A DNA stretch of 64,000 bases from Candidatus Uhrbacteria bacterium CG10_big_fil_rev_8_21_14_0_10_50_16 (GCA_002774875.1 PCYM01000001.1:182153-246152); one strand, 5' to 3'; positions 27,785 to 62,327 are shown, counted from the first letter of the stretch. Numbers and translations: made by a program. The notes: generated by a model from the letters alone, not told the origin.

Positions 27785-27822
27785 AATCGACGGGCGGCAG
27801 GGAGAGTTCCCCGCCGCCCGTT
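27785..27822 (-). terminator. terminator of cassette G
   Basis: CGGGCGGCagggagagttccCCGCCGCCCG hairpin then U-rich tract on minus strand. Confidence 0.6.
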
Positions 27823-27835
27823 TGGAAGTTGTGGG

Positions 27836-28546
27836 TCATTCGATGCGACGCTCCTTGAGCAGTACCAGCGTGAGGACATCGGCCGCCAAGGTTACCGCGA
27901 TGCATAGCCGAATCACCGGCACGTTGAGCGAGCCCGGGACGTTCTCCACAAAGAGCAGGAGTACTACACCGGTGGTTGCAGCATCTGCCAAGAACCGTGC
28001 ACGTTGCGCCCACATCGAGAGCTGCTGCGGTTCCTGCGCTTGCATCACAAACGGCACGTAGGCCACGGAGATGTAAGCGCCGATGATCACCGCGCCGGAG
28101 ATGGGATCCTGCACGTTAAACTGTTGCGCGAAACTCTGGTACAGCACCGTCGTCAAAGTGAGCACGGCGCCCGCGGTCAGAGCCTTGAGCATGCGGCTAG
28201 TGCCCTTGTCGGCAAACAGTACCCAGCACACCACCAGCACAGTATCCATGGCCAGCCATGGCCACTCGATGATGCGCAGCGGCAGCTCGACTGGATCCGT
28301 AGGCGGCCACACAAGAGTGAACGTGTACTCAAAGCTCCACATCATTGCCAGACCCAGCAACGGAATGTTGTTGACCTTGTTCTTGATGCTTCCTCGAATC
28401 AACAAGATGAAGGTTGCCGTCCACCCGGCAAGCACGCCCACCAAGCTCAGACACGCCATCAAGGCAAGCGGCCACGGCAGACTCTTGAGGACGACCAACG
28501 TCTCACGAATCGCGTCCAACGTTACAAGGGGTTCACACGTTTCCAT
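27836..28546 (-). CDS. GC-rich ORFan polytopic membrane protein (cassette G)
   Basis: about 58% GC. Minus-strand promoter TTGACA-16/17-TAAGTT, Shine-Dalgarno GGAGAGGAGAAAG, 4 nt, then ATG (METCEPLV..). About 6 TM helices; own terminator. Confidence 0.55.
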   Translation of the reverse strand: METCEPLVTLDAIRETLVVLKSLPWPLALMACLSLVGVLAGWTATFILLIRGSIKNKVNNIPLLGLAMMWSFEYTFTLVWPPTDPVELPLRIIEWPWLAMDTVLVVCWVLFADKGTSRMLKALTAGAVLTLTTVLYQSFAQQFNVQDPISGAVIIGAYISVAYVPFVMQAQEPQQLSMWAQRARFLADAATTGVVLLLFVENVPGSLNVPVIRLCIAVTLAADVLTLVLLKERRIE

Positions 28547-28625
28547 GTCTTTCTCCTCTCCAAGTACGTCAGCGTCATAACGACTCTGCGAACTTATCAG
28601 ATTTTTGAAATTTGTCAACGGAGCC

Positions 28626-28660
28626 GCCTAAACAAAAAAGAGCCCGAGGCTCTTTTAAGC
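28626..28660 (-). terminator. bidirectional terminator after K+ channel gene
   Basis: AAAAAAGAGCCcgaGGCTCTTTT. Confidence 0.7.
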
Positions 28661-28669
28661 AATGAATCG

Positions 28670-29005
28670 TTATTTTTTTCTTCGTTTTTTTGTGATACGC
28701 CCACGAATACTCATTTGATCGTGATAGCGTGCAAAAACTAGCTCGCCGACGATTCCAATTCCAAAGAGCAACAATGGAATAGAGAGGAGTGCGTAGACAC
28801 TTGTTACCAAGCGAGAGGTGTCCGATGAGGGTGCAAGATCTCCATAGCCGACTGTCGTCACCGTTGCCACGGAAAAATAAAACGCCTGGATCCATGTCCA
28901 ATTCTCAAGCCGCTGAAAAATGATCGTACCTCCTACCAAGAGCGCCGCGAGCACCACAAAGATCAGGAAGATACGTTTTACAAACTGGTTTGTAATCGTA
29001 TTCAT
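28670..29005 (-). CDS. two-TM potassium channel (pore-only, KcsA-like)
   Basis: Selectivity filter TVGYGD flanked by two TM helices; 111 aa. Host-like GC, extended -10 TGaTACAAT close to the ATG (leaderless-like). Confidence 0.7.
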   Translation of the reverse strand: MNTITNQFVKRIFLIFVVLAALLVGGTIIFQRLENWTWIQAFYFSVATVTTVGYGDLAPSSDTSRLVTSVYALLSIPLLLFGIGIVGELVFARYHDQMSIRGRITKKRRKK

Positions 29006-29247
29006 GATGACATTGTATCAATAAAGGATCCTTTTCTCTCTCCTTTTGTGTGGATAACAAACTCGCGCAAACGGAGGTTCTTCTATTGACAGGATCCGAA
29101 TTTAGAGATATGTTCATTTTATTGGAAAGGTTTATTGAGTCTGTGAGATAAGCGCTGTGTTTATCGATCATTGGTAAACAAGGCGCTTGTCTCATGCACG
29201 AGATGGCCGTGACCGTCCGAAGACGGATCGATTCTAGGGAGACGGTG

Positions 29248-30117
29248 ATGAAGAATTTCACACCCCCGCAGTTGGACATGTTCCGGGAGGCCGTCGAGTT
29301 GGAGGCTTCCGCCCTCAACCTAAGTCGAGAGCAGCTTCAAGGAGTCCTGGGCAGCAGGAGGCTCCGCGGCATGCTGCGAGACCTTCTGGTGGAGCTCGGA
29401 CAGGAGTATCCGCCAAACGCGGACGAGGCTCGCGTGCGTCTGTGGGACCATTTCCTGGGAGTCGCCGAGGCCCGCAAGGCGTTCGGAGTCCTGATCTCGG
29501 ACAGCATGATCCGGGAACTGGGCGATGTGCCGGACGACCTGTTGGGCCGTATCATGGCGAGCCACGGCCCTGGCGAGAAGGAGTATCTCCGGCTCTTCCT
29601 GGATCCGGGACTGTCCGTCGCGACCATGATTCGCTCGCAGGGAGTCCAGTACAAGGGGAGCTACGACGACTCCATGCTCTCCAGCTTCAACCAGCCGTGC
29701 TGGCGACTTGTGGATGTTCGCCACTTGTACAACCAGAGTGCCCGGCGGATCCTGACCATGGAGCTGATGAGCTTGCTCTCCAAGGGCATCAGCCAGACGG
29801 GTGAGTTGGAGCAACTCCAGCTCGGCCGTAAGGACACCGCTGGTCACACGGTCTACATGTCCTCGCGACAGAAGGTTCAGTACCACAAGCTGCAAATCAT
29901 CGGGTCGGCTCGGCCGAGCCAGGTGATGACCATCACGGTCCCCCTGATCCGTCCGTCGACTCAGAAATACCGGCACGCAACGCCGGAAGAGATCCGATCT
30001 GCCTACAGCAGAGAGATTGCGCTGGAAAGCGTTATGCTGCCTGACGGGAGGTGGTTCTTGTCCACCAGGATCGACAGAGTCGTTGTCCTGGTGAGCGAGA
30101 TCACCTGGATCAAGTAG
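29248..30117 (+). CDS. GC-rich ORFan protein (cassette A)
   Basis: about 60% GC. Promoter TTGACA(29085-29090)-17-TATGTT, Shine-Dalgarno AGGGAGA, 5 nt, then ATG (MKNFTPPQ..). Terminator 30139-30180. The antisense 284-aa ORF has an R/G/L-rich artefact composition. Confidence 0.6.
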   Translation: MKNFTPPQLDMFREAVELEASALNLSREQLQGVLGSRRLRGMLRDLLVELGQEYPPNADEARVRLWDHFLGVAEARKAFGVLISDSMIRELGDVPDDLLGRIMASHGPGEKEYLRLFLDPGLSVATMIRSQGVQYKGSYDDSMLSSFNQPCWRLVDVRHLYNQSARRILTMELMSLLSKGISQTGELEQLQLGRKDTAGHTVYMSSRQKVQYHKLQIIGSARPSQVMTITVPLIRPSTQKYRHATPEEIRSAYSREIALESVMLPDGRWFLSTRIDRVVVLVSEITWIK

Positions 30118-30138
30118 CCCAGCGCCTAGCACCCACAA

Positions 30139-30180
30139 GGGGGCGTCCGCAATCCTGCGGACGCCCCCTCTCACTTTATC
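30139..30180 (+). terminator. terminator of cassette A
   Basis: GGGGGCGTCCGCaatcctGCGGACGCCCCC + TCTCACTTTAT. Confidence 0.7.
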
Positions 30181-30238
30181 TACCCTCTATTGACGTCCTG
30201 TCTCTTTTCTTGTATCCTCTCGTTGCGTTTCAATTCAC

Positions 30239-30313
30239 GGCCCCATCGTCTAACGGTTAGGACAGCAGGTTCTCATCCTGCAAATCCGGGTTCGATTCCC
30301 GGTGGGGTCACCA
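30239..30313 (+). tRNA. tRNA-Glu (anticodon CTC), CCA encoded
   Basis: Acceptor GGCCCCA/TGGGGTC, anticodon stem GCAGG/CCTGC with loop TTCTCAT, T-arm CCGGG-TTCGATT-CCCGG, then ACCA. Followed by terminator CCGAGctcgtCTCGG+T7 (30317-30350). Confidence 0.8.
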
Positions 30314-30372
30314 ACAAAAAATCCGAGCTCGTCTCGGGTTTTTTGTTGGTACCTCCCGCGGAAATTGGACAA

Positions 30373-30413
30373 GGGGCACTGGGAAGGGAGAAATTCTCCC
30401 TTCCCAGTGCCCC
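30373..30413. other. 18-bp perfect hairpin (GGGGCACTGGGAAGGGAG aaatt CTCCCTTCCCAGTGCCCC)
   Basis: Perfect inverted repeat 60 nt downstream of tRNA-Glu, no U-tract; candidate recombination/att-type structure at the island border. Confidence 0.6.
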
Positions 30414-30454
30414 TATTATGAGGTTTAAAATGCGATCGACACCACGCATACACT

Positions 30455-30503
30455 CATATCTTATTCTAAATTAACAACACGGTGGGGTCCGGAGACCCCA
30501 CCG
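30455..30503 (-). terminator. terminator of cassette F
   Basis: CGGTGGGGTCtccgGACCCCACCG then UGUUGUUAAUUU on minus strand. Confidence 0.5.
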
Positions 30504-30522
30504 CTATCAGGAGTGGGTGCGT

Positions 30523-31008
30523 TCAGCCGCCGCCGCACCGACACGAGCTACGCTGACCGTGATCGCTGTTGCAGCAACCCTGCGCGTGACCCCAGTCGCG
30601 TTCACCATCCTCGGGCCAGATCTCGGTGTCGAGATCGGCGTACAGGCCGCACAGGTACTCACGGGTGCGCGCGTAGGTTCCCGGCTCCATCGATCCCGGC
30701 AGATCGCACGGGTCGTGGTGAAGGTAATCCACGCCCATGGACTGACAGAAGTCGGTGTACGGCTTGCTGTAGAGCAGGAACGTGTGCCACGCCTCATCGG
30801 CTAGATGTGACGGAGCAAGACGACGACCTTCCGGAACTGCGCAAGCGCGCAGGAACTGGATGGCGCCATCAAAGGCTCGACGGGCCACATCCTCGTCGAT
30901 ACTCATATTCTTGACCATGCGAGCTATCACGCGGTCACGAATGGATGAGTCGAGGTTGTAGTCGGGGAGTCGAATCTGAGACTCGACCAAACAAAGGGCG
31001 GCAGACAT
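30523..31008 (-). CDS. GC-rich ORFan protein (cassette F)
   Basis: about 62% GC. Minus-strand promoter TTGACA-17-TAGAGT, Shine-Dalgarno GAGGTG, 4 nt, then ATG (MSAALCLVES..). Conserved-looking core EAWHTFLLYSKPYTDFC..YLHHDP, Cys-rich tail. Confidence 0.5.
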   Translation of the reverse strand: MSAALCLVESQIRLPDYNLDSSIRDRVIARMVKNMSIDEDVARRAFDGAIQFLRACAVPEGRRLAPSHLADEAWHTFLLYSKPYTDFCQSMGVDYLHHDPCDLPGSMEPGTYARTREYLCGLYADLDTEIWPEDGERDWGHAQGCCNSDHGQRSSCRCGGG

Positions 31009-31079
31009 AAGCACCTCAATCAATCGTCTCGAACGGCATGTCCGAGACGCTTACTCTACGTGCCTCACAGCCATGTTGT

Positions 31080-31125
31080 CAACATATCACTGGTCGGGTC
31101 TATAAAAATAGTGGCGCCCGCCCAG
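31080..31125 (-). terminator. terminator of cassette E
   Basis: GCCCGCCCGGGatcctccTGGGCGGGCGC + CACUAUUUUUAUAG on minus strand. Confidence 0.6.
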
Positions 31126-31148
31126 GAGGATCCCGGGCGGGCGTACGT

Positions 31149-31739
31149 TCACTTGATGTTCGGACAGACCTTGGGCAAATCGGAGAACTGCCAAGAGACT
31201 CCGAGATCCTGCAGATTCCGCAGTTCTTGTTCCATGCGGTTGCGAGTGTTGTTGAGACCGATTGCCATGGCCTGTATGAACCAGGTGCACACGTCGCTGA
31301 TCTCCTGCCAGGTCAACAGCTCGTACTTGGCGAGAACCGCAGACAGACGGCCGTCCTGCCCCTTGTCGAGTCTGCCACTGATGCCATCCACGGCAATCGT
31401 GTTCTGCATCACGTAGACGAGCAGACGGCCGGTCGAATCACTCCCCAGGCGACCCTGCCCGCCCGCGATCATGAGGTCCGCCACCTCCCGATACGAGCTC
31501 CACGCACCCTGGGAGGCTTGGAACATCTCGGCGATCTGCTGTAGTCCGCAGGTCAGCACCTTTGCGTTCTCCACGCGTTCTTCCCGACTCTCCCGTGCCT
31601 GAACCTTGGCCTCGTCTCGAACAGACTGATCCGACACGGACCCGGTGGCCCACGCATTCGTGCAGGACCCCGGTGCCAACAAGAGCACCAACACCACCAA
31701 CATGCAAAACCCCACGAACTTCAATTGCTTCTCCATCAT
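31149..31739 (-). CDS. GC-rich ORFan secreted protein (cassette E)
   Basis: Minus-strand promoter TTGACA-17-TATAAA (31775-31808), Shine-Dalgarno GGGAGAG then ATGATG. Signal peptide MMEKQLKFVGFCMLVVLVLLLAPGSC; 196 aa. Confidence 0.55.
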   Translation of the reverse strand: MMEKQLKFVGFCMLVVLVLLLAPGSCTNAWATGSVSDQSVRDEAKVQARESREERVENAKVLTCGLQQIAEMFQASQGAWSSYREVADLMIAGGQGRLGSDSTGRLLVYVMQNTIAVDGISGRLDKGQDGRLSAVLAKYELLTWQEISDVCTWFIQAMAIGLNNTRNRMEQELRNLQDLGVSWQFSDLPKVCPNIK

Positions 31740-31815
31740 CTCTCCCGTCTCGCCATCTATTCGGCGGATCAACTTCTTTATAGTCAAAAAAAGACTCCGT
31801 GTCAATAGGCCGGGG

Positions 31816-32025
31816 CTAAACCGTCGTCGACCACCACAGGAGAAACGTGACCGTCTCCTCCACAGTGCCAAGCGTCAACAACAGCGTCTTCATCCGTCTT
31901 GTTCCCATACGGCGCCTCAACAAAGCCACCAACGTATTCCACTGCAGAAGATTTAGATCCAGGCCGGTCTGCCTCAGACGTGCGCATACATTTTTCTCAA
32001 CATCTTCCAACGAGAAATCATTCAT
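31816..32025 (-). CDS. possible small ORFan gene with strong Shine-Dalgarno (candidate cassette I)
   Basis: GGAGGT 5 nt before ATG (MNDFSLEDVEK..), 69 aa, about 50% GC. The stop abuts cassette E's promoter; weak TTGACG promoter. Confidence 0.3.
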   Translation of the reverse strand: MNDFSLEDVEKNVCARLRQTGLDLNLLQWNTLVALLRRRMGTRRMKTLLLTLGTVEETVTFLLWWSTTV

Positions 32026-32137
32026 CTATACCTCCAGGCGTTAGAGAGAAACCTGACATCTTAATACGTAATTTTCAGTTTCCGTCATGCGTCAATCAAA
32101 AACGACCCCACATACGCGAGGTCGTTAATTCCACCCA

Positions 32138-33805: not shown

Positions 33806-33806
33806 A

Positions 33807-38707: not shown

Positions 38708-38864
38708 CTAGCACACAGTATACCACCTTGACAAAATCGCCATTTTCTGATAGGTTAGACCGTCACATTCCGTCTGAGGTTTGTGCAAAATTCACCAGAA
38801 ACATGCCTGTTTGAGGCTGTGCAACACATTTGATCTGCGCCTACGTGCGCGAGAGGAGGATGCG

Positions 38865-41018
38865 ATGAGCGTGAACGTGAAGAAGATTGGTTGGATGGGC
38901 TTCCACTCGGGTCGTCCGCATTTGGACGACTTGTTGGCAGCCGTGATTGGATGCGTGCTTGGCCTCTTTGAGGTCGAGTTCATGGACCCGAAGAGTTCCG
39001 TAAACCTTATCCTGGACGCGAGCGGCATCTCCAATGCCCTGGCGCGCCAGATGAGCGAGACGGGGCGGGACGCCGACGGCGTGCAGTTGTACGCCGCGTG
39101 GATCGGCACGACCCCCAACGGTGGGACCTCCCCCGTCTCCGAGGGCGACCAGTGGTGGTCGCCCTACGACGAGCACGGGAGTGGCAACCCCGCGGACTCG
39201 GCCACGGAGCTCATGCTCCACCTGGCCGGGGACGACAAGGCCATTGGCCGGCGGCTCCAGACCCTCTTCCGGGGATGGGGCATCCGCGCCTCGGAGGCGC
39301 AGGTCGCGGAGTCGGTGGAAAAGCTCCACCACATGGTGGCCTACACCACCATGAAGGACAACTTTCCCGTCGCCATGCGCGGCGGAATCAGCTGGCTCCT
39401 CAAGCAGCTGAACCGGGTGTGCTGCTTCCAGATCGGAGAAGGTGGGAAGATCCGGGAGGAGTCCTACTCCTCCCAGGAGGTCCTCCGTGACCTCCGTTGG
39501 ATCTACCGACTGCTCGTCACCTACATGACGAGCAACCTGCAGATTGAGACCTCCGATCTGGCCGCCGTGGACCAGGAGATGGTTCACTGGTACCTCCAGC
39601 GTGAGGACGTGAGCCCGGCATGGAAGCCGGACACCGCTCCACGCACGATGGCGGAGCTGACGGCCATGATCCGGACGGAGGTGCGCCGCAAGGCGCTGGA
39701 GGCCAAGAAGGCCAACCGGGCATTCAGCCCGCCCTCCACGCTGCTCCGCCGTTTGCGGAGCCTCACCGCTCTGGTGAGTGACTTGCGCAACCCCAGCAAC
39801 TGGGCATCGGTGGAGGCATGGATGCTCCACCAATGGATGGGGGGCAAGAAGGTCCACCTCGGGATGAACGTGGGTAACACCACGACCATCCAGGAGGTGA
39901 TCGCCAACCTCGCCGCCCGCGCGGAAGCTCTCAAGGAGAGCGCGCGGGCGGACACACCCCGCCAGCAGGAGAAGCTGGAGGGCTGGATCCGGCAGCTGCA
40001 GGAGTTGCAGCTGCGCGTGGAGGATGAAGAGCAGACCCGCCAGCTGATGGCGGGAGATGAGCGGATGGATGAGCGGACCGCCGCCTCCCCCTACGGGGTG
40101 GTGGCGACCACGGTCCTGCTCCTGCGGCGTTCCCGCCGCACGGACGGCCTGGCCTTCCCCGAGGGTCAGGCCGTGGCCGAGGAGTACCTCTTCATGGCGC
40201 TGGACGCGCTGTGGGGAAAGATGCTCCTGGCGGAGGCCGCCTCCCGTCAGATCCAGGAGGCACAGGCGGACCCCACCTGCACGCCGGCCATCGCGGTCGA
40301 CTGGCAGGTGAAAGGTGTGGAGCAGCCGGGACTGCTCCACTCCGATGGCATCAACCCCGAGACCCCGGCGGAGGCCCGCCGGATCTTGGGCAAAGGCCAG
40401 GTGGGTGGTCGCCAGGTGAAGCGCTTCCCGCTGATCCTGGTCACCTGCGAGAAGCTGCCGGACGGTACGCCGTTCGGAAGCGCCTACCTGGGCGCCGACC
40501 AGCGGTACTTCGGTACCGACTGGACGGACGGATTCTTCCGTCACATCACGTCCTGGCTCCGAGTCATGGAACTCCGGCGCCAGGGCAATCCGTTGCCGGA
40601 GGACCTCGATACCCTCGAGGCGCCCGACAAGGTGCAGGACCACGTGTGGTTCCTACACCTCAACGGAGACGGAAAGGCCGTCCAGGTGATGGCCAAGAGC
40701 CTCCACCGCCGGGATTCGCCCGGTACGGAGCTGGACGCCAAGCAGGAGATCCTGGCCGCCCAACTGGTGGTCTACACCGTCTTCTGCGCCTGGCGGTCTC
40801 TCGGAGTGTTCGGCAGCCAGCAGGGCCGCCTCAGCCTCCGGGCACGGGACAGCGCCCTGCGGGCGCTCCGCCACCGCCTCGCCGGCGCCGAGGACATGGC
40901 CGCCGAGCTGCAGCTCATCTTGAGCGAGCTCCGCAGCCAGATCGTCATCCACCAGACCGCCCTCCTCCCCCTGCGGGAGTCGAAGGCGCCGGGTGAAGAG
41001 CTCGCCCCCACGAGCTAA
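38865..41018 (+). CDS. large GC-rich ORFan protein, 718 aa (cassette B)
   Basis: about 65% GC against about 48% in flanking genes. Promoter TTGACA(38729-38734)-17-TAGGTT, Shine-Dalgarno GAGGAGGA, 4 nt, then ATG (MSVNVKKIGW..). Balanced amino-acid composition, whereas the other five frames give R/G/L/H-rich artefacts. Terminator 41050-41092. Confidence 0.65.
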   Translation: MSVNVKKIGWMGFHSGRPHLDDLLAAVIGCVLGLFEVEFMDPKSSVNLILDASGISNALARQMSETGRDADGVQLYAAWIGTTPNGGTSPVSEGDQWWSPYDEHGSGNPADSATELMLHLAGDDKAIGRRLQTLFRGWGIRASEAQVAESVEKLHHMVAYTTMKDNFPVAMRGGISWLLKQLNRVCCFQIGEGGKIREESYSSQEVLRDLRWIYRLLVTYMTSNLQIETSDLAAVDQEMVHWYLQREDVSPAWKPDTAPRTMAELTAMIRTEVRRKALEAKKANRAFSPPSTLLRRLRSLTALVSDLRNPSNWASVEAWMLHQWMGGKKVHLGMNVGNTTTIQEVIANLAARAEALKESARADTPRQQEKLEGWIRQLQELQLRVEDEEQTRQLMAGDERMDERTAASPYGVVATTVLLLRRSRRTDGLAFPEGQAVAEEYLFMALDALWGKMLLAEAASRQIQEAQADPTCTPAIAVDWQVKGVEQPGLLHSDGINPETPAEARRILGKGQVGGRQVKRFPLILVTCEKLPDGTPFGSAYLGADQRYFGTDWTDGFFRHITSWLRVMELRRQGNPLPEDLDTLEAPDKVQDHVWFLHLNGDGKAVQVMAKSLHRRDSPGTELDAKQEILAAQLVVYTVFCAWRSLGVFGSQQGRLSLRARDSALRALRHRLAGAEDMAAELQLILSELRSQIVIHQTALLPLRESKAPGEELAPTS

Positions 41019-41049
41019 CCCCCTCCTGCACATGGAGGGACGCGAAAAA

Positions 41050-41092
41050 AGAGGGGCTCCGCAATCTGCGTGAGCCCCTTTTCCTTTTATCT
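41050..41092 (+). terminator. terminator of cassette B
   Basis: AGAGGGGCTCcgcaatctgcgtGAGCCCCTTTTCCTTTTAT. Confidence 0.7.
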
Positions 41093-41098
41093 CTTTTT

Positions 41099-41455
41099 TT
41101 ATTGCGCCGCAGCAATCGCTGCAACAAGTTTTGCTTTAAGACCCGTAAGTGCCGTGACGGCCGTTGCATAATCTTCATCACGGATTGCACGCGATCCCAC
41201 ATATCCTTCTTCCTCCCACACACTCAATTGTGTTGCATCCACACCCGCGGTACTTGCATCCACGAGCAACTGTCCCACGTCGAGCATAAGGTTAAGCGCT
41301 TGGGTCTTTGCGGCACTATCCACGGGAGCCGCTGTCTTAGGGATCTCCTGCGCAGGCACTGCTAATGGTTCAACAGGAATTGAATCGGAGGGTTTGGAAG
41401 CACATCCAGCTCCCACGAGTGAGAAGGCCATGAGCGAGAGAATGAGTTTTTTCAT
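41099..41455 (-). CDS. hypothetical lipoprotein
   Basis: Signal peptide with lipobox-like LVGAGC; 118 aa. Confidence 0.5.
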   Translation of the reverse strand: MKKLILSLMAFSLVGAGCASKPSDSIPVEPLAVPAQEIPKTAAPVDSAAKTQALNLMLDVGQLLVDASTAGVDATQLSVWEEEGYVGSRAIRDEDYATAVTALTGLKAKLVAAIAAAQ

Positions 41456-45200: not shown

Positions 45201-45564
45201 AATGGGTCCGATGTTTGTTTCTTAAAGCCTTGTAGCTTATTCTCTTGGTGCGGACAAAAACAACATCCCAATCAAGGAGATATTGGAACCTCATCAAACC
45301 TTTATTCCCGCGGACAAAGGATTAGCGAAGTTCATCCAACACACTGTAAAAGACAAGCCTGCAAAGAGCGAACGTGTGAGCCGTGTCACCAGGGACAGGT
45401 TCGACGACAATCCCACATCTTGTGCTCCAATGTGGATTCTACCACAAGATACGGTGTCCCATCCCTCCATTATAGTGTCGCACAACGCTACGTTTGGGGA
45501 TAACCTTTTTTCCCTTCCAACACGCGCCCAATCTTAGCACGTTTTGACTCAAGATGCTCACCAC

Positions 45565-46140
45565 TTAAAGCGGCATTGAGAGGTTGATGGAGGCGGCAAG
45601 CTCTACCTCCGGCGCCACAGAAAAGGCAATCTCATGCACCTGCCCCATCCGGTCCTCAAACAACACATGCCCATGCTCGCGTGCAAATTCATAAATCTCT
45701 TTCGTGACACGGACATCTTGCAAACAATAGTCGGCGAGTTCCTGAATTTTTCCTTCCTTCCAAAACTCTACTGCCTGTAATCCGTGACCAGACTTTCCCA
45801 TACCAAGCGTGGACTTTGCCACGTCATCTAACTTGACGCGATAGCCGAGCGTCTGGTGAATTTTTTCCAACAGGTCGAGTTGTGGAATTTGATTCAAATC
45901 ACCCGCGTAGTAATTATTCATAACCGGGTTATCGAACCCTTTTTGGTTGTAGCCGATAATACGATCCGCTTGCTCAAGCCGCGGCCAAAGTTTTGGCAGG
46001 TCCGGCTCCAAAAAATATTCGTAACTGTCTGTTTCAAAAAAATACACCCCAACGAGCGATATGCGGAGCTTGTCATGATGCCATCCGCCAACGTCTTCAA
46101 AGGTGTTTTGAGTTTCAATATCGAGAACAATTTCTTTGGA
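45565..46140 (-). CDS. 3'-5' exonuclease, PolB-exo-like (DEDDy) fold
   Basis: VLDIETQ (Exo I), FDNPVM, YCLQDV; start taken at MSKEIVLDIE. Confidence 0.55.
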   Translation of the reverse strand, partial: SKEIVLDIETQNTFEDVGGWHHDKLRISLVGVYFFETDSYEYFLEPDLPKLWPRLEQADRIIGYNQKGFDNPVMNNYYAGDLNQIPQLDLLEKIHQTLGYRVKLDDVAKSTLGMGKSGHGLQAVEFWKEGKIQELADYCLQDVRVTKEIYEFAREHGHVLFEDRMGQVHEIAFSVAPEVELAASINLSMPL

Positions 46141-46274
46141 CATAGATAAAAGAGGAGGTCGAGCTAGGACACGATTATAACATATTGATTTTATCTCTAA
46201 TCTGAGAGAACCCTTGACAAAATCTGCAAAGACAGGTTGAATGGACATGCGTCAAATTCCACGACGCAAGGAGC

Positions 46275-46521
46275 CGACATGCGCAGCGCCAATACCGTGG
46301 AGACTGGGGAAGAACGAGACTGGAGGAAGAACGAGGAGGAGGGCCGGAAGCTCGCTGGGTGGGTCGACGTCCGCCTGCGCAACGGAAGGGTCCAGCACGA
46401 GGTCGTACAGGATCTCATCGACACCGGAGTTGGCCGCGAGGTCGCCGGATGGGCTCTCGCCATCGCCATCAGGAACAACGGAGGCAAGCCGCCCGAGGTT
46501 CTGCCGCACGTGACCGCCTGA
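46275..46521 (+). CDS. small GC-rich ORFan protein, 82 aa (cassette C)
   Basis: about 65% GC. Promoter TTGACA(46214-46219)-17-TTGAAT, Shine-Dalgarno AAGGAG, 6 nt, then ATG (MRSANTVE..). Terminator GAAGCCCGCCC..GGGCGGGCTTC+T5 (46539-46581) abutting the MTase stop. Confidence 0.45.
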
Positions 46522-46538
46522 CGGTCCTGAACACGAAC

Positions 46539-46581
46539 GAAGCCCGCCCGGGACACTACTTGGGCGGGCTTCCTGTTTTTA
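46539..46581 (+). terminator. terminator of cassette C
   Basis: GAAGCCCGCCCgggacactacttGGGCGGGCTTC CTGTTTTT. Confidence 0.7.
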
Positions 46582-47115
46582 CCATTCGTACAACCGAGCC
46601 GTAGCACGACCGACCGGTTGTTCTTTTTTTATCGTCGCCCCACCGGAAAGCGTAAAGTCGTGAGAGAGGACTTTGACATGCGTGTATCGGTCTCTAAGTC
46701 GCTGTTCGATTTTCTGCATGGCTTTTGGAAGAAGGTACAGAACCACCACATCCGTATCCGGCAGATCAACCTTAAAGATGTTCCCTCGAATAATCGTAAC
46801 CATATCCGATACACCGTTGCGATACGCGCGCCATCGTGCCAACCACACCAATACGGGATTGAGTTCGATGCCTATACACACGGCGCCATATTCGCGCGCC
46901 GCAACCAGCAACATACTCGCATCTCCACACCCCAGATCCACGACACGATCACCTGGTTTAATCCCGCCAAGACCACACATCGCGCGCGTGATCGCCTTAT
47001 TTGTTGGGACCCACGGCGCGCCCGAGAAAATCGTCAACGTCACCGCCACCATAAACACCGAAAAAATGCACAAACAAATCAACACAATCAACAAAATAAT
47101 CGTTGCTAGTTCCAT
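46579..47115 (-). CDS. class I SAM-dependent methyltransferase with N-terminal TM helix
   Basis: VVDLGCGDASMLL (motif I), ELNPVLV; ATG 1 nt after upstream stop. Confidence 0.65.
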   Translation of the reverse strand: MELATIILLIVLICLCIFSVFMVAVTLTIFSGAPWVPTNKAITRAMCGLGGIKPGDRVVDLGCGDASMLLVAAREYGAVCIGIELNPVLVWLARWRAYRNGVSDMVTIIRGNIFKVDLPDTDVVVLYLLPKAMQKIEQRLRDRYTHVKVLSHDFTLSGGATIKKEQPVGRATARLYEW

Positions 47116-53653: not shown

Positions 53654-53768
53654 ACAAAAGGGTTATGTGCGCGCCATTGTATCACAATGTTCTTCTTGCA
53701 CGGTTGACAGTCTCACAAAAAATAGGTACAACCTCTGTACTGATCAAAGATATCAGTGGAGAACAGGT

Positions 53769-54290
53769 ATGGAAGATGGTAAGGATTTCTATTTTGAGAG
53801 CGTGATCATTCACGTGGGAGACAAGACGGTGGAGCTGGAGCATGTGCACAGCACCAACAGGCGGTTGCAACGGCTCATGGAGCAGGGTTACGACATAGCC
53901 GCATCGCTCGAGTTCACGGTGGACCCGAATAATCAGGTGGCGACCCAGCTGGGTCTACTGCAGTACCTGCCTGACCCGCGGCAGACGGAGGTCGCGGAAC
54001 CCGAGGTGGGCACTCAACCCGTCGACCTCGCCAACACCGGATTCACGCAAGAACAAGTGAACCTCCTCAACACCCCGGTTAGTGAGCTCCCCCAGATCTT
54101 CGTCGTCCAAGAAATTGTGAGCCTGGCTAGTCGCCATCTGACGCGTCTTCACCACGTAGTGGTGGGCGGTGGACCGAGGTCCCTGAGCCTTTCTGAGGCG
54201 ACAGAGACCAGATATCAGAACTTGCTCAACGCGCACGGCCTGAAGATCTATTCGCCACTTTCGAGCATTGAGGACCTCCTCCTCGTCTAG
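53769..54290 (+). CDS. GC-rich ORFan protein, 173 aa (cassette D)
   Basis: about 57% GC. Promoter TTGACA(53712-53717)-17-TACAAC, Shine-Dalgarno GGAGAA, 6 nt, then ATG (MEDGKDFYFE..). Terminator GAGCCCGcaccactggtgtCGGGCTC+AAACATTTTTC (54306-54342). Confidence 0.55.
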   Translation: MEDGKDFYFESVIIHVGDKTVELEHVHSTNRRLQRLMEQGYDIAASLEFTVDPNNQVATQLGLLQYLPDPRQTEVAEPEVGTQPVDLANTGFTQEQVNLLNTPVSELPQIFVVQEIVSLASRHLTRLHHVVVGGGPRSLSLSEATETRYQNLLNAHGLKIYSPLSSIEDLLLV

Positions 54291-54305
54291 CAGCCCCTAC
54301 AACAA

Positions 54306-54342
54306 GAGCCCGCACCACTGGTGTCGGGCTCAAACATTTTTC
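54306..54342 (+). terminator. terminator of cassette D
   Basis: GAGCCCG/CGGGCTC hairpin plus T-run. Confidence 0.65.
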
Positions 54343-54356
54343 AACCGTTCCTCTGT

Positions 54357-56343: not shown

Positions 56344-56409
56344 AGTTTATCGTTTGCCCACATGATATCATGGCATAGACAGATCTTCCAATCCTGCTAA
56401 TCTCCTGTT

Positions 56410-57774: not shown

Positions 57775-59095
57775 AGACCTTGCCAACAAACGTGTTGCTT
57801 TGATTGGATTTGAGGCGACCAACCGTTCCCTATTTTATGCACTTCGCTCCGTCTGCCCCAACCTCTGGGTAGAGATTCGCGATCTTCGCACCACCGTCAC
57901 GCTGCCAGAGGACCCGTTTGTTACGCACACACTCGGCGAAACATACCTAGACCATCTACAAACGTTCGACGTCATTATTCGATCACCTGGCGTGCGCTAT
58001 TGGCCACAGTTGCAAGCGGTGCAATCGCATGTCACCACAAGTCTCAATCTCTTCTTTGACGAGGTACGATCAACGACCACGGCAACGATGATTGGTGTCA
58101 CCGGGACCAAGGGAAAATCAACCACTGCCACCCTGTTGGCACATGTTTTGCGTGAGGCGGGTAAAGCTGTGACGCTCATTGGCAACATGGATATTCAGGA
58201 ATGGGATCACCTACACGAGATTAACGACGACACAATTGTCGTGTACGAGATGTCCAGCTACATGTTGGAAGATTTTAACAACTGGCCAGACATTGCCCTC
58301 CTGCTCCCCTTATACCCGGATCATATGGACTGGCATGGATCATTTGCCGCATACACCGAGGCTAAATCTCGCATTACGGCTCGTCAAACAAGCGAAAACA
58401 TGTTGATCTTTCCTGCTAAAAACGCGGAGGCTCTCTCCATTGCAAAACAGACAGACGCCACAACCATCCCCGTGCAGATTGTAAGCGGTCTTCATTGGCA
58501 AAACGGTTTCTTTTTTGATGGAACACAGCAACTTTTTTCTACAAACGCGCTCCCGCTCCCCGGAGAGCATTGGTTAGACGATGCACTGCTCGTTCTCGCT
58601 GTCGTTAAACAGTTGGACATTCCCTTTGACCGTGCCCAGCGTGCGTTCACCAGCTTCAAAGGTTTGCCACATCGATTAGAGGTTGTGGCAACAATCAACC
58701 AAGTAACCTACGTGGACGATGCTATTTCCACCACACCAGAATCAACAATCGCGGCTGTAAAGGCGTTCGATACGGTCGGATCCATTGTCTTGGGCGGTAT
58801 GGATCGCGGATATGATTATGTGGCACTTGCGCAGCTACTCACAGAACGTCACGTGCCAAACGTCCTCCTCTTCCCCGGCGCCCGTGAGAAATTTCAACAC
58901 GCTCTTACACGCGCTCAGTTTGCTGGTAGCGTGATTCTTGTGGAATCCATGCAGGAGGTCGTTTCTACCATGGCGCAGTGCACACCCGCAGGGTCTGTGG
59001 CACTCTTGTCTACCGCCGCACCAAGTTACGATCAGTTTAAGAATTACAAAGATCAGGGGCAACAGTTTGTGGATTGTGTTCGAAAGTTGTCTTAG
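57764..59095 (+). CDS. MurD-family UDP-MurNAc-L-Ala--glutamate ligase (candidate MurD2)
   Basis: GVTGTKGKSTTATLLAHVL P-loop, Mur ligase central and C-terminal domains; start at MRLKDLANKRVALIGFE. Confidence 0.65.
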   Translation: MRLKDLANKRVALIGFEATNRSLFYALRSVCPNLWVEIRDLRTTVTLPEDPFVTHTLGETYLDHLQTFDVIIRSPGVRYWPQLQAVQSHVTTSLNLFFDEVRSTTTATMIGVTGTKGKSTTATLLAHVLREAGKAVTLIGNMDIQEWDHLHEINDDTIVVYEMSSYMLEDFNNWPDIALLLPLYPDHMDWHGSFAAYTEAKSRITARQTSENMLIFPAKNAEALSIAKQTDATTIPVQIVSGLHWQNGFFFDGTQQLFSTNALPLPGEHWLDDALLVLAVVKQLDIPFDRAQRAFTSFKGLPHRLEVVATINQVTYVDDAISTTPESTIAAVKAFDTVGSIVLGGMDRGYDYVALAQLLTERHVPNVLLFPGAREKFQHALTRAQFAGSVILVESMQEVVSTMAQCTPAGSVALLSTAAPSYDQFKNYKDQGQQFVDCVRKLS

Positions 59096-59115
59096 ATGCT
59101 ATCACCCTCGTTTGA

Positions 59116-59175
59116 TCGTCATTGCGCGTTTCACGAAGCAATCTATTTATTCTTTCTCTCTCCTTTTTGTTTCGC
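59116..59175 (-). repeat. about 60-nt conserved element, copy 2 (inverted relative to 9615-9674)
   Basis: tcgtcattgcgcgtttcacgaagcaatctatttattctttctctctcctttttgtttcgc. Confidence 0.7.
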
Positions 59176-59495
59176 CAAAAAGGAGGCAAAAAGCATCGTG
59201 TCTGTACGGCGTACTCGTGGGGACACGCTGAGGGAACTCGCGATTTTGCTCACGATCAGATCAGCTCTGATCAATCCAGCCCTTCGCCCCCGAGGATATG
59301 TGCGTTTTGAAAGACGAAGCCTATGCGGAGAATTATCAAAACACGCATGTCCGAAGATGAGCGAGTTCGGCGAAGGATTTAAGCGTGATGAATAATGCGG
59401 TTAAGGTCCCTAGGCGGGCTCGGGATGACGGATGGTTTGCTCACGATCTAATCTGTTTCAGACTTCGTCGGCGAAGGATTTAAGAAATAAAAAAC

Positions 59496-59535
59496 ACCCG
59501 CGCGAGGCGGATGTTTTTTTAGACACGGTGCTTGT
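59496..59535. terminator. bidirectional terminator
   Basis: AAATAAAAAACACCCGCgcgagGCGGATGTTTTTTT. Confidence 0.55.
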
Positions 59536-59716
59536 TGCTGCGAAGACTCTTTGCTGCCGTCTTTTTTGCGACACGCTTCAACTTTGGCAATTTTACGCCC
59601 GTTGAGGCACTTTTTCCTTTGCGAGACATAGATGTATGTGAGTAGTGATCGTTCCACCCCGTAGATCTACGAGACAGAATCTGCTAATACGCCAGAGTAT
59701 AGGCCAAGAGACGGGT

Positions 59717-60037
59717 TTAGTCAAGCCTCTCGCGGACAAAGCGTTGAAACTCCTGTTTCATGCGTAAAATCTCGCGTTCCACCGTTGGTCCATCGTATTC
59801 CCCGCTATGCATATTAGAGCCTGCATAGCTGGCCTTTTTTTGATCAAGGTGCAGATCAAACGTTACGACTTTGTCGGTCTCCTTTACATACACATGGAAT
59901 CGCGGATAAAACTCTCCACCGATTTTCCGCGTATAACTCAACTTCCCCATTTTACGGTCGTAGTGTGGAGAATACCGAGCCGCACGCAATAAGCGTTCGG
60001 GTGTTCCCGGCAACGGTTGTGCAAAGTGAATCTTCAT
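59717..60037 (-). CDS. hypothetical protein
   Basis: 106-aa ORF, basic, no motif. Confidence 0.45.
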   Translation of the reverse strand: MKIHFAQPLPGTPERLLRAARYSPHYDRKMGKLSYTRKIGGEFYPRFHVYVKETDKVVTFDLHLDQKKASYAGSNMHSGEYDGPTVEREILRMKQEFQRFVRERLD

Positions 60038-60082
60038 TTCTCTAGTATACCAAAACCCCAGACATGCCGGGGTTTTTGCTGT

Positions 60083-60367
60083 TTACAAGATTGCCTCTTT
60101 TGCGGCCTTGCTCAAACGGAATTTTACGACCGTCTTTGCAGGGATGCTGATTGCCTCACCTGTTGCTGGGTTGCGTCCCATGCGTGCGGCACGGTTCTGC
60201 TTAACGAGCTTTCCCAATCCTGGGAGCGTCAACTCACCTTTCCCACGAACCTCACCGTATACGAGGTCAACAAACTTCTCGTAACCTTCTGCGGCCTCCT
60301 TTTTGGAGAGTCCCCATGCTTCTGAAAGAGCTGCTGTAAACTGTGACTTGGTTAGTCCTGATGCCAT
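60083..60367 (-). CDS. hup: DNA-binding protein HU
   Basis: KAARMGRNPATGEAISIPAKTVVKF HU/IHF arm signature, 94 aa. Confidence 0.85.
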   Translation of the reverse strand: MASGLTKSQFTAALSEAWGLSKKEAAEGYEKFVDLVYGEVRGKGELTLPGLGKLVKQNRAARMGRNPATGEAISIPAKTVVKFRLSKAAKEAIL

Positions 60368-60475
60368 AATCTAGCGGTTAAGAATGCTTCTTAGAGGGAG
60401 TGTACACCAAACGCTCAAAAACGCTAGGGTTTATCCACATTTGCCATACACGCTCCAAAAAAGCTGTCAACAAAA

Positions 60476-62032
60476 TTAATTTTTAGCGCGATCAGACAAT
60501 AACGCCGACAAATGTTGCTGAATACGATCGATCGCAAATTCTGATCCGTCTTCTAACTCCAGACTCCAAATCATGGACGTTGCGATCTCAATGGTTTGTT
60601 CTTCATTGAACGTCTCAAACCAAGAAATCGTGCTTTCAAGAATCGCGATCGTTTCCATTATTGTTTGTCGCTCCGTTGCCTCTTCGATTTGCTGCCAAAT
60701 CTGTTGATCTATTAATGGTTGCAGGGCATCTCGCGCACGATCCTTGTCGCCATTAACAAGCGCGTTATACGCATATGTTTCCTGCCGTTGAATGTAGGCA
60801 AGCAATGTGGGCTGTACATCGGTCACGGTGAACGACCGATCATAGGCTCGCAATCGCGCATAAAGCGTGGCAACTTGTTCTGCCGCCGCGTCTTCATTGT
60901 AATGAATATCCTGGGCATGTGGCGTAGTGGCTGGTGCTGTTCTGTGTGTAATCCGTTTTGTGTCTTCTCGTGCCTTGCTTGTCTGAGCCCACGCGATTAA
61001 TCCGCGCGCCACGTTATAGGGCATATCTGTATCAATTAGGTGATAGAGCGCAAACTGTGCCGTTTTGGGTAAGGCGTCCACCATGTCGATCCGATGCACG
61101 AGCAAATCCTCCAAAAATAATGACTGATTGTAGCTGCGTTGCACATCCCCAAGAGCGTAACTCTTTCTATGACGCAAATATTGCAGGGTGGTGGTTGGAT
61201 CATAGGAAAGCGCACGTAATACCCCTTGTGCCTGAGAGAATCCCACCAATACGCGATAGTCCACTGGTTGACCCGTGATCTTCTCCACGCGCGACACAAA
61301 CTCATCGACGCCCAAATATTCACACACGTTGGAGATGTATTGTTCCTTTGCCCAAGCGAGCGACACGACGTCTGGCTCTTCCTCTGGAACCAAGGTGGAT
61401 TCTTGCGGCAACAACGTCGGCGCCTCACTCTCGGAGACTTCTTGGTTTGTAAACCAAGCCGCTTCTTCTGCCTGCCGCTCTTCTTCCACACGTTTGAGAT
61501 CCACATCGACGGCGTCCAATAATTCCGTTTGCGGCGTCCAGTGTTCTTGTCGTGGGATATAGCTATACGTTCCGCGTGGGACATTCACAAACTCCACGGT
61601 GTCTTTAGCGGTGTCAATCGTGATTGAATGAATTGCGTCGCAGTGAACCTCCTTTGCCCCCTTGCGAGAATCCACCCCCACCACTAACACGGTCACTTTT
61701 TCGGGCGTCTCGATATCTGTGTCAACACCCAATAAACCCGCGATTTGCGAGGAAAGGCTCCAAGTAGACCCCTCATCGCACGACTGTGAAGAGCAGACAG
61801 GGACAACAAACACCACAACAAAGAGCGTTGTGGCAGCCATGAGAATCGCAATCCATTTTAACGGTTTAGCTGCTTTCATGTGTGGAATTAGCCCCATCAT
61901 AGCATTGCCGCCGTCAAACCCGCAAAAGACGGTCTCTTCTTCGAAACTCAAACATGTCTCTTCCATAGTTGACAACACTGGCATTTTTTGATATGAATGA
62001 TAGGTACGTAGCCACAATGGTTGTGGTTGCAA
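60476..62032 (-). CDS. LytR-CpsA-Psr (LCP) family cell-envelope phosphotransferase
   Basis: TM anchor then LVVGVDSR..AIHSITID..VNVPRGTY LCP core. Real start probably MMGLIPHMKAAK (about 61906), leaving room for cassette H's promoter. Confidence 0.65.
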   Translation of the reverse strand: MQPQPLWLRTYHSYQKMPVLSTMEETCLSFEEETVFCGFDGGNAMMGLIPHMKAAKPLKWIAILMAATTLFVVVFVVPVCSSQSCDEGSTWSLSSQIAGLLGVDTDIETPEKVTVLVVGVDSRKGAKEVHCDAIHSITIDTAKDTVEFVNVPRGTYSYIPRQEHWTPQTELLDAVDVDLKRVEEERQAEEAAWFTNQEVSESEAPTLLPQESTLVPEEEPDVVSLAWAKEQYISNVCEYLGVDEFVSRVEKITGQPVDYRVLVGFSQAQGVLRALSYDPTTTLQYLRHRKSYALGDVQRSYNQSLFLEDLLVHRIDMVDALPKTAQFALYHLIDTDMPYNVARGLIAWAQTSKAREDTKRITHRTAPATTPHAQDIHYNEDAAAEQVATLYARLRAYDRSFTVTDVQPTLLAYIQRQETYAYNALVNGDKDRARDALQPLIDQQIWQQIEEATERQTIMETIAILESTISWFETFNEEQTIEIATSMIWSLELEDGSEFAIDRIQQHLSALLSDRAKN

Positions 62033-62045
62033 TGCGGAGGTGGGA

Positions 62046-62259
62046 CATGACCTACAAGGATCTGCAGGAGCTGTACATGGAGATCGGCCTAACGGCCGAT
62101 CAGGCCCATGCGGCCATCATGGGCGTCGCGCAACTCATGCTGCGTGCCGCCACCGGACGCGACAACATCCACGCGATCGGCGCCGCGGGATTCATCCCGC
62201 GTAAGAGCACGATGGACAATCAGTGCCCCCTCCCCCGGCGGAGGACGGCGACGGCGTGA
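62046..62259 (+). CDS. small GC-rich ORFan protein, 71 aa (cassette H)
   Basis: about 62% GC. Promoter TTGACA(61966-61971)-17-TATGAA, Shine-Dalgarno GGAGGTG, 4 nt, then ATG (MTYKDLQELY..). Terminator AAGAGCC..GGCTCTT+CGTTTTT (62291-62327). Confidence 0.4.
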
Positions 62260-62290
62260 ACAACCTGAACAGCGACAACGTGTCGCCCTG

Positions 62291-62327
62291 AGAAGAGCCC
62301 TCTTCTCAGGGTGGCTCTTCGTTTTTA
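62291..62327 (+). terminator. terminator of cassette H
   Basis: AGAAGAGccctcttctcagggtgGCTCTTCGTTTTT. Confidence 0.55.

Follow-up and report, generated by a model that had tools for sequence, protein, structure and literature searches.

Eight dispersed protein genes, designated G, A, F, E, B, C, D and H, together with a newly found ninth, J, stand apart from the genes around them in a 64,000-nucleotide stretch of the genome of Candidatus Uhrbacteria bacterium CG10_big_fil_rev_8_21_14_0_10_50_16 (GCA_002774875.1 PCYM01000001.1:182153-246152), hereafter referred to as the window. These units differ from the surrounding host genes in codon usage, in predicted promoter type, in the design of the mRNA leader and in their use of a Shine-Dalgarno (SD) sequence. 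In our view, they probably represent a native second expression class of fast-evolving, lineage-restricted genes, which is maintained by selection and whose members are gained and lost at a few intergenic slots. With 8-9 units among approximately 62 genes, the class takes up about one gene in 7 of the window.

The source organism is an uncultured bacterium of the candidate phyla radiation (CPR), and its sequence is natural and reproducibly assembled. Namely, the same sequence, junctions included, is found in four independent assemblies (ENA ERZ27293400 and ERZ27293412, JGI 3300004210, and Logan SRR6240789): the window matches contig k141_1155395 of ERZ27293400, and parts of it are also present in the other three. 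Two window proteins correspond to the NCBI entries COV06_01140 and COV06_01160 (Candidatus Uhrbacteria bacterium CG10_big_fil_rev_8_21_14_0_10), while the ribonucleotide reductase (RNR) of the window, a class II, B12-dependent enzyme, is 62-68% identical to Uhrbacteria/Patescibacteria RNRs in GTDB. Our gene map holds 62 genes, merged from the gene calls that accompanied the look-ups. Relatives with syntenic loci are labelled L092, L093/L094, L095/L096, L124 and L125, the last being genome GCA_013203725.1, and the window itself represents a sixth lineage.

Signals and composition of the units

An exact TTGACA stands upstream of all eight units, J having TTGACG, and is followed after 16-18 nt by a weak -10 hexamer (Table 1). 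This motif is not enriched in the window as a whole (28 copies seen, 30.7 expected); in the 6.3 kb of intergenic DNA, 12 of the 28 copies are found as against 3.0 expected, and seven of these 12 are unit copies, that of E being scored as coding because it falls inside a doubtful automatic gene call, hyp61. The promoter is followed by a predicted leader of 30-127 nt. In C, D, E, F, G and H the leader is short (30-43 nt), with a hairpin that begins at the predicted 5' end or only a few nucleotides from it and then an unpaired SD, the hairpins being individually modest (z from -0.4 to -1.9). In A, B and the 146- and 249-amino-acid (aa) genes of the relatives it is long and strongly structured (z down to -6.5), the hairpin lying directly before the SD; in nearly all leaders, in other words, a hairpin is placed either at the predicted 5' end or immediately 5' of the SD. 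An SD core (GGAG, AGGAG, GGAGG or GAGGTG) lies 3-7 nt before the ATG in 9/9 units, as compared with 6/53 host genes in a generous count (Fisher p = 2.5e-7). Finally, all eight units end in a GC-rich hairpin of 11-15 bp (dG from -28 to -43 kcal/mol), situated 12-30 nt past the stop codon. Judged by these motifs, each would be an autonomous unit, with a promoter of its own, one gene, a terminator of its own and a composition unlike that of its flanks. What the promoters and terminators of the units have in common are functional features and not a common repeat.

The host genes follow a different pattern. The first genes of host operons have an extended -10 element, TGnTATACT, which ends 6-9 nt before the ATG and is not accompanied by a -35 box, and operon-internal host genes are likewise devoid of an SD. 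TATACT is seen 19 times in the window, with approximately 34 copies expected, and 7 of the 19 stop 6-9 nt short of an annotated ATG, a placement expected about 0.06 times by chance. Given so short a distance between the -10 box and the start codon, we infer that host mRNAs are leaderless. Apart from the promoter ahead of the penicillin-binding protein (PBP) gene, included in Table 1 as an example, the same type precedes the genes for an RNase J-like protein (9541), DnaX (14921), CysS, DUF5665 (41716), hyp522 (52473), hyp106 (60044), YibE_F (62331) and a K+ channel. The -35-type promoter is also present on hrcA (TTGACA-17-TAGAAT, kept in L093), tRNA-Gln (TTGACA-17-TACACT), tRNA-Glu and two probable non-coding RNAs. 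Since hrcA and the tRNA genes carry it, this promoter type would be read by the organism's own RNA polymerase and is not foreign. As for translation, corA (18823-18857) is the sole gene of host composition with a strong SD (AAGGAGGT, 5 nt before a GTG start), preceded by a 26-nt leader from a TGTTATACT promoter, and this suggests that the organism's ribosome can use SD sequences.

The coding sequences (CDS) of the units have a GC content of 0.57-0.67 and a GC content at third codon positions (GC3) of 0.70-0.88 (0.66 in J), whereas GC3 in 52 host genes averages 0.50 (sd 0.054, range 0.39-0.63), without any overlap. Over codon positions 1/2/3, the pooled GC of the units is 0.64/0.43/0.81 and that of host genes 0.57/0.40/0.51, meaning that the difference is mostly one of synonymous codon choice. 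For instance, AAG makes up 95% of Lys codons in units and 45% in host genes, and ATC makes up 77% and 32% of Ile codons, respectively. The relative synonymous codon usage (RSCU) of B correlates with that of the other units at r = 0.92 and with that of host genes at r = 0.12 and, if only G/C-ending codons are considered, at 0.71 and 0.20, respectively. This codon dialect is common to the units and to the lineages (RSCU r = 0.80-0.92), even though the unit proteins are not paralogues, an all-against-all BLASTP having given orthologue pairs only.

Could such a composition come from the location of these genes or from their expression level? The GC excess is limited to the CDS: unit promoters have 31-51% GC (seven of the eight 31-40%, F 51%), and the initial 60 nt of each unit CDS are lower in GC than the remainder. 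As the borders of the excess thus follow the CDS, a regional mutational or conversion bias fits poorly. Furthermore, HU, DnaK and GrpE, host proteins in the window that are typically highly expressed, do not show the codon bias of the units, which makes ordinary translational selection an unlikely source of the high GC3. The units are also commoner on the plus strand (5/8, vs 8/54 host genes; Fisher p = 0.008). The cumulative GC skew drops steadily across the window, suggesting that most host genes are probably co-oriented with replication, in which case replication would meet B, C, D, H and A head-on.

These genes had been singled out in an original prediction, which ascribed to them one expression logic unlike that of the surrounding host genes. 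In this respect it was correct: promoter, leader hairpin, SD, terminator and codon dialect all set them apart. We could confirm the exact TTGACA that it reported in the eight units, the start TTGACAAA that it gave for B, C and G, their high GC content, and the strong SD said to be missing from host genes, CorA being the only host gene with a strong one. Upon checking, the host genes of the window do not show the full combination of promoter, SD, terminator and GC content. Likewise, the T-tail of C's terminator indeed includes the stop codon (46579-46581) of the methyltransferase gene, which converges on C. The dedicated terminators that it described are there in all eight units, the newly added J having none. 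That said, a further supposed cassette, I, was only partly well described: it has the weak TTGACG promoter but is a gene for tRNA-Glu(CUC), and, contrary to what had been claimed, it does have its own terminator, which, together with its conserved place in a relative, identifies it as a host gene. Finally, the view that all units code for ORFans (proteins without known relatives) does not hold for G, a multi-pass membrane protein with a match to Pfam PF25129 (Pyr4-TMTC), for F, with a precomputed match to PF27765, or for B, with its predicted DHH-type fold.

The 3' untranslated regions (UTRs) of units (27822-27835, 30505-30522 and 62260-62281, and in the L092/L093 orthologues) show another regularity. 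Namely, the spacer from stop codon to hairpin is C/A-rich, and the motifs CCACAAC, ACAACCTGA or CTCCTGA occur in it in 11/20 units vs 10/84 host genes. Some of the 3' UTR motifs (CTCCT, CCTCC) resemble an anti-SD sequence and could pair with the SD of their own unit. Such an anti-SD-like motif is found in 7/20 units vs 5/84 host genes, with orthologues among these units not being independent, and for this reason we keep it as a mere observation.

B and C in related genomes

Are the units recent arrivals? For B and C, the relatives argue otherwise. B has three homologues in an index of 5.8 billion proteins and, in a profile search, 9 representatives among 1.84 billion. The genomic contexts of six members of the B family were looked up and, together with the window, 7/7 loci lie in the same Uhrbacteria slot, i.e. 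between the PBP/Mur-ligase operon and the DUF5665...RNR segment, on the opposite strand (L092, L093/L094, L095/L096, L124, L125 and the window). In the five relative lineages, the GC3 of B and of the host is 0.87/0.55, 0.82/0.53, 0.84/0.62, 0.74/~0.38 and 0.84/0.45, respectively; that is, B stays at 0.74-0.88 across lineages while the host spans 0.35-0.64. The expression signals are retained as well. The relatives' B genes have a TTGACA-17-TA(G/A)(G/A/C)TT promoter, a long leader, a terminator and a purine-rich motif of SD type (GGAG, or GAGG in L125), and they stand back-to-back with a predicted leaderless PBP promoter of the TGGTATACT type. The promoter of B is conserved base for base at TTGACA, the T-tract of the spacer and TAGGTT. 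In the leaders of B in the six lineages, the position of the hairpin before the SD is kept and its sequence changes. C, for its part, is syntenic in four lineages, with orthologues of 70-85 aa in L092, L093 and L095 and the same TTGACA-17-TTGAAT promoter. More generally, the split between units and host genes is also seen in L092, L093, L095, L124 and L125, and even the distant Uhrbacteria L006, L018 and L081 have GC3-outlier genes with TTGAC[AT], leader, SD and terminator.

Pairwise protein identity ranges from 19 to 71% for B and from 74 to 94% for RNR, and the ranks of the two correlate (Spearman 0.69, p = 0.004). With B and C in fixed slots and the divergence of B tracking that of RNR, we conclude that B and C are old and vertically inherited. 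Between L092 and L093, core genes have 92-94% protein identity, synonymous divergence (dS) of 1.0-2.2 and a ratio of nonsynonymous to synonymous divergence (dN/dS) of 0.02-0.05, whereas four GC-rich genes have 62-71% identity, dN of 0.18-0.30, dS of 0.45-0.79 and dN/dS of 0.33-0.39, where dS, calculated by NG86, is biased downward by extreme codon bias. These values indicate that the GC-rich genes are genuine, with purifying selection acting on them, that their proteins evolve approximately 10 times faster than those of the core, and that their synonymous sites are less free to change. The closest pair being already saturated at synonymous sites and the deeper splits older, a foreign composition that decays passively should have vanished by now. 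What is more, high GC3 stays constant in hosts whose own GC3 runs from 0.35 to 0.64. For this reason, we believe that the composition is maintained, by selection or by gene-specific bias, and does not belong to a fading import.

Origin and maintenance of the proposed second class

How could such a class work? In the explanation that we favour, the Uhrbacteria genome would run two modes of gene expression side by side. The core mode, at ~49% GC, would rely on the extended -10 TGnTATACT without a -35 box, 6-9 nt before the start codon, and on leaderless mRNAs without an SD. The second would consist of mostly monocistronic units with a perfect -35 TTGACA and a weak -10, a hairpin leader of 30-127 nt, a strong unpaired SD, a dialect of G/C-ending codons and an intrinsic terminator. 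B and C would be old residents of fixed slots, with other members turning over. GC-rich, structured mRNAs may be barred from the leaderless, SD-independent route, and would hence need an SD. The hairpin of the leader might shield these mRNAs from decay that starts at an exposed 5' end; an RNase J-like protein is encoded at 8179-9531. A -35-dependent promoter could provide transcriptional control separate from that of the core genome, and the high GC3 would be upheld by selection or gene-specific bias.

One can also entertain a stronger proposition, to which we attach a good deal of doubt. Namely, codon usage, initiation mode, promoter type and mRNA design might co-vary as a second genetic dialect kept by selection. 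G/C-ending codons might then be read by C34 tRNAs such as tRNA-Glu-CUC and tRNA-Gln-CUG, both of which have promoters of the -35 type, and initiation at an SD with 30S binding might be set against leaderless initiation with 70S binding. If true, this would amount to an expression channel that can be switched separately and serves lineage-specific genes that evolve fast, possibly ones involved in interacting with a host organism; in an extreme version, the dialect might even be tuned for expression in a partner cell.

Several points weigh against a native class maintained by selection. Our comparison covers ~64 kb of the source genome and six syntenic loci of 6-22 kb, which is a narrow scope; the promoters and the leaderless status of mRNAs are deduced from motif positions; dS carries the bias mentioned above; and ordinary translational selection, as noted above, hardly explains the high GC3. 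Vertical descent is shown for B and C only, as A, D, E, F, G, H and J are without orthologues in our data; for the neighbourhood of D and H, a metagenome scan anchored on MurL gave distant loci only (<=45% identity). In L093, the spacer between HrcA and the K+ channel gene lacks G. The stretch from the K+ channel gene and tRNA-Glu to the Na/H exchanger gene holds A, F, E and J in the window and, in L093, a TrmB regulator and unrelated GC-rich genes of 249 and 146 aa; the tRNA-Glu beside this island is intact, and the same tRNA adjoins the K+ channel gene in L093. Both L092 and L093 have an extra GC-rich gene of 266 aa, divergent from C, without a counterpart in the window and in L095. Finally, L013 contains a gene with a GC3 of 0.91 and M1 aminopeptidase motifs, read by eye with no family search, which resembles ordinary horizontal transfer. 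Such gain and loss at a few intergenic slots is consistent with a horizontal origin of the lineage-variable members, and part of the class could have been imported.

This leads directly to the main rival explanation, according to which all units are moron-like horizontal imports that arrived at various times from GC-rich, SD-using donors and kept the donors' signals, B and C being very old imports. It would account for the deviant composition, for the lineage-restricted or ORFan character and fast evolution of these genes, for their position amid conserved operons as units that have their own promoter and terminator, for the presence or absence of G, A, F, E, J and the 266-, 249- and 146-aa genes in different lineages, and for the L013 gene; Uhrbacteria genomes of 63-66% GC (L007, L009) even exist as possible donors. 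Nevertheless, we consider this explanation rather unlikely. Word-index homology searches in 5.8 billion proteins returned only G and F themselves and, for B, only three syntenic orthologues; the profile search with B in 1.84 billion cluster representatives gave no donor homologue; viral contigs contained no relatives of B, A and F; and the nine proteins had no matches in PHROG, PADLOC and NCBIfam. In addition, the GC3 of B and C stays at 0.74-0.88 past synonymous saturation, when old imports should have ameliorated, and the units have a single codon dialect and a single design of promoter and leader in common despite unrelated proteins, with promoters that are AT-rich and conserved in place. 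The recent foreign origin put forward in the original prediction is thus not supported, given the synteny of B and C, the divergence of B, which tracks the host, and the lack of amelioration, nor is the single donor it envisaged, no donor being visible and the seven recovered loci of the B family all belonging to this clade.

The other two origins it had put forward, a cassette-type mobile mechanism and deliberate engineering, are not supported either. An active mobile system, integron-like or otherwise site-specific, that inserts ready promoter-gene-terminator modules between genes could explain the uniform design, the strictly intergenic positions and the turnover at few slots, one of them beside tRNA-Glu. 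In the window, however, the flanks of the units show no meaningful repeats, direct or inverted, no attC-like sites were found, and the Pfam lists of all called genes contain no integrase, transposase or recombinase. With B and C immobile throughout the history of the clade, and with promoters and terminators that are alike in function only, we find such a system highly improbable. We are just as sceptical about the idea that the units resemble T-DNA, i.e. that they are meant for expression in another cell, namely a GC-rich host organism of this CPR bacterium. While this would explain why selection keeps a foreign-looking dialect and foreign-looking signals in fast-evolving, lineage-specific genes, and while the window includes, at 15684-18239, a gene for a TraG/TrwB-like coupling ATPase, nothing points to DNA transfer, border sequences or clustering, and the units are scattered. 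B has the predicted fold of an intracellular DHH phosphoesterase, the -35-type promoter of the units also serves host tRNA genes and the hrcA operon, so that the bacterium's own polymerase reads it, and CorA, of host composition, uses a strong SD. Sharp compositional borders and a very regular, textbook-like design could, in turn, raise the suspicion of a chimeric metagenome assembly or of engineering. This is effectively refuted, since the junctions are identical in four assemblies made independently by different pipelines and since five further natural genomes (groundwater, marine TARA, other) show this architecture at the orthologous positions, with 19-71% protein identity.

If units were native, what would follow? 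Compositional outliers are routinely read as recent transfer, yet B and C, at least, are old, syntenic and kept different, and the outlier class is predicted to be tied one-to-one to another promoter type and another mechanism of translation initiation. Should this hold genome-wide, it would be a natural case of a very small genome that runs two expression regimes insulated from each other, and an SD-poor, mostly leaderless CPR lineage would have retained SD-dependent initiation for a defined set of genes. GC-based transfer detection and gene-start prediction would then misjudge such genomes, as in the case of the start of A, of J and of a 44-aa leaderless open reading frame (ORF), all of which were missed or miscalled. 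Lastly, the short list of fast-evolving, lineage-specific proteins provides candidates for the unknown symbiotic biology of Uhrbacteria.

Individual units, their surroundings and known systems

Table 1. Positions of the units, of the tRNA gene formerly taken for a cassette and of an example host promoter in the window (promoters, leaders and terminators are predicted)
Feature	Span	Strand	Promoter	Leader and SD	Coding sequence or gene	Terminator
G	27785..28618	-	-35 TTGACA 28618-28613, 16-nt spacer, TAAGTT	~38 nt with hairpin; SD GGAGAGGAG	27836-28546, 236 aa	27790-27821
A	29086..30175	+	-35 TTGACA 29086, 17-nt spacer, TATGTT	~127 nt, z = -4.7; SD GGGAG	29248-30117, 289 aa, no family	30138-30169
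I (no cassette)	30190..30345	+	TTGACG-17-TATCCT		host tRNA-Glu(CUC), 30239-30313	30325-30341 (own)
F	30479..31082	-	-35 TTGACA 31082-31077, 17-18 nt spacer, TAGAGT	~38 nt, 7-bp hairpin; SD GAGGTG	30523-31008, 161 aa	30479-30504
E	31115..31805	-	-35 TTGACA 31805-31800, 17-nt spacer, TATAAA	~34 nt with hairpin; SD GGGAG	31149-31736, 195 aa	31115-31143
J (newly noticed)	31816..32095	-	TTGACG 32095-32090	SD GGAGG 5 nt before ATG	31816-32025, 69 aa, GGAGGtatagATG, GC3 0.66	none of its own
B	38728..41100	+	-35 TTGACA 38728, 17-nt spacer, TAGGTT	~102 nt, hairpin just before SD AGGAGG	38865-41018, 717 aa, GC 0.67, GC3 0.88	~41050-41100
C	46214..46582	+	-35 TTGACA 46214, 17-nt spacer, TTGAAT	30 nt: 5'-terminal hairpin GCGTC...GACGC and SD AAGGAG	46279-46521, 80 aa	46539-46572
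D	53704..54345	+	-35 TTGACA 53704, 17-nt spacer, TACAAC	30 nt: 5'-terminal hairpin ACTGAT...ATCAGT and SD GGAG	53769-54290, 173 aa, no family	~54305-54345
H	61969..62327	+	-35 TTGACA 61969, 17-nt spacer, TATGAA	43 nt with hairpin; SD GGAGGTG	62047-62259, 70 aa	62282-62315 and T-tract
Host promoter (example)	38708..38725	-	extended -10 TGGTATACT, ending 9 nt before the PBP start codon

For most units, no function could be assigned. In the case of B, Pfam, NCBIfam, a PDB profile search and Foldseek against PDB gave no significant match. AlphaFold succeeded with 11 sequences, having reached a pLDDT of 57 with 4. B has a predicted fold of divergent DHH/DHHA1 type and is presumably phosphoesterase-like. 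In 11 sequences H14, H19, D21 and D165 are invariant and D102, E103 and H104 invariant or nearly so, and these residues are candidates for the metal-binding motifs of DHH phosphoesterases. The promoter of B is back-to-back with the predicted leaderless promoter of PBP (TGGTATACT, 38725-38717, minus strand). The N-terminus of E resembles a lipoprotein signal (...LLAPGSC). J, which overlaps the doubtful call hyp61, runs into E's promoter and may be co-transcribed with E. For A, the start at 29248, which has an SD, is probably correct, the automatic call at 29194 lying 54 nt too early.

Some observations concern the immediate surroundings of the units, whose neighbours are housekeeping genes (hrcA-grpE-dnaK, PBP/Mur ligase, RNR and MurL) and not prophage. 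Between the terminators of tRNA-Glu and F lies an inverted repeat of 21 nt without mismatches, its loop being 1 nt long (30372-30414; AGGGGCACTGGGAAGGGAGAA / TTCTCCCTTCCCAGTGCCCCT), and just ahead of this repeat, at 30346-30370, there is a degenerate inverted copy of a tRNA 3' end. Next to C, the automatic start (46248) of the RNase H-like gene at 45565-46248 overlaps the leader of C. Given that the relatives' protein has 190-202 aa, an ATG at 46142 with TTATAAT ahead of it fits better, and the intergenic region with C then measures 136 nt. Upstream of the RNR gene, an ORF-free region of 364 nt (45201-45564) is conserved in length in relatives, with a similar sequence before the ATG (…ttaagaaacaaa…), and no Rfam riboswitch was detected in it.

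Other observations come from the rest of the window. The 3' end of tRNA-Gln(CUG) and its terminator (12416-12480) are repeated ~200 nt downstream (12617-12682) at ~80% identity; this duplicate, unrelated to the units, looks like what remains where an element once integrated at the tRNA gene, and the ~135 nt in between are GC-rich. On the minus strand at 12156-12288 lies the unannotated 44-aa ORF mentioned above, which is hydrophobic (MTFKDHYRFFLIVILLIAFFGALIAV...) and has a TATACT ending 6 nt before its ATG. It stands back-to-back with the TTGACA of tRNA-Gln (AGTATACCgcgTTGACA), the PBP and B promoters being arranged alike (AGTATACCaccTTGACA). The gene for the coupling ATPase, a large protein (DUF8128, TrwB_AAD_bind), has housekeeping genes as neighbours, and no further conjugation genes are seen close by. 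Lastly, a gene-free gap of 715 nt between cysS and a hypothetical gene (21160-21875, minus strand) contains two promoter- and terminator-bounded units, one with TTGACC at ~21836 and the other with TTGACA at 21611-21606; both end in a GC hairpin with a T-run and have no convincing ORF. They are probably two non-coding RNAs of ~170 and ~370 nt, although Rfam recognizes two tRNAs only in the window and leaves the 21.1-21.9 kb gap empty even at E = 1.

How does the proposed class compare with known systems? Phage morons, as described by Hendrix and colleagues, are reportedly self-contained units of promoter, gene and terminator that lie between conserved prophage genes and deviate in GC content. 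Our units resemble them in being single genes, often of unknown function, with a sigma-70-type promoter and an intrinsic terminator of their own, variable presence and deviant composition. Unlike morons, however, they reside on a bacterial chromosome among housekeeping operons and have no PHROG or viral-contig relatives that we could find, and B and C are fixed and co-diverge with the host across the clade, their composition showing no drift toward it. With atypical acquired genes and ORFans the units share their outlying composition, narrow distribution, raised dN/dS and gain and loss between relatives. The foreign compositional signature of such genes is said to decay in the amelioration model of Lawrence and Ochman, whereas here a GC3 excess of +0.2 to +0.4 is alike in six lineages past synonymous saturation and there is one codon dialect. 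Integron cassettes are promoterless, end in attC and are arrayed beside an intI integrase. Like them, the units are small, mostly single-gene and of unknown function, and their set varies between relatives, but each has a promoter and a terminator, they are scattered, and attC and intI were not found in the window.

On the side of gene expression, 5' stem-loops and SD sequences act as mRNA stabilisers in Firmicutes, for instance in the ermC, aprE and cryIIIA STAB-SD leaders. The short leaders of our units, with a 5'-terminal hairpin followed by a strong unpaired SD in a genome that encodes an RNase J-type nuclease, look similar and by analogy could function similarly, although their hairpins are modest (z from -0.4 to -1.9 in short leaders) and the transcription starts are predicted. 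Mixed leaderless and SD-led initiation is said to have been reported by Cortes et al. in 2013 and to occur in Actinobacteria such as Mycobacterium tuberculosis and in Deinococcus. There, too, two modes coexist and the -10 of leaderless genes lies at a fixed short distance from the start codon; in the window, by contrast, the SD-free mode makes up the large majority, and the SD-led minority forms a class of its own in composition, in -35-dependent promoters and in evolutionary rate. In a literature search, we found no description of leaderless or SD usage or of bimodal GC in Uhrbacteria or Parcubacteria. In this sense, the ingredients, i.e. morons, atypical genes and mixed initiation, are known, while their strict coupling and their deep persistence in a CPR lineage are what we did not find described.

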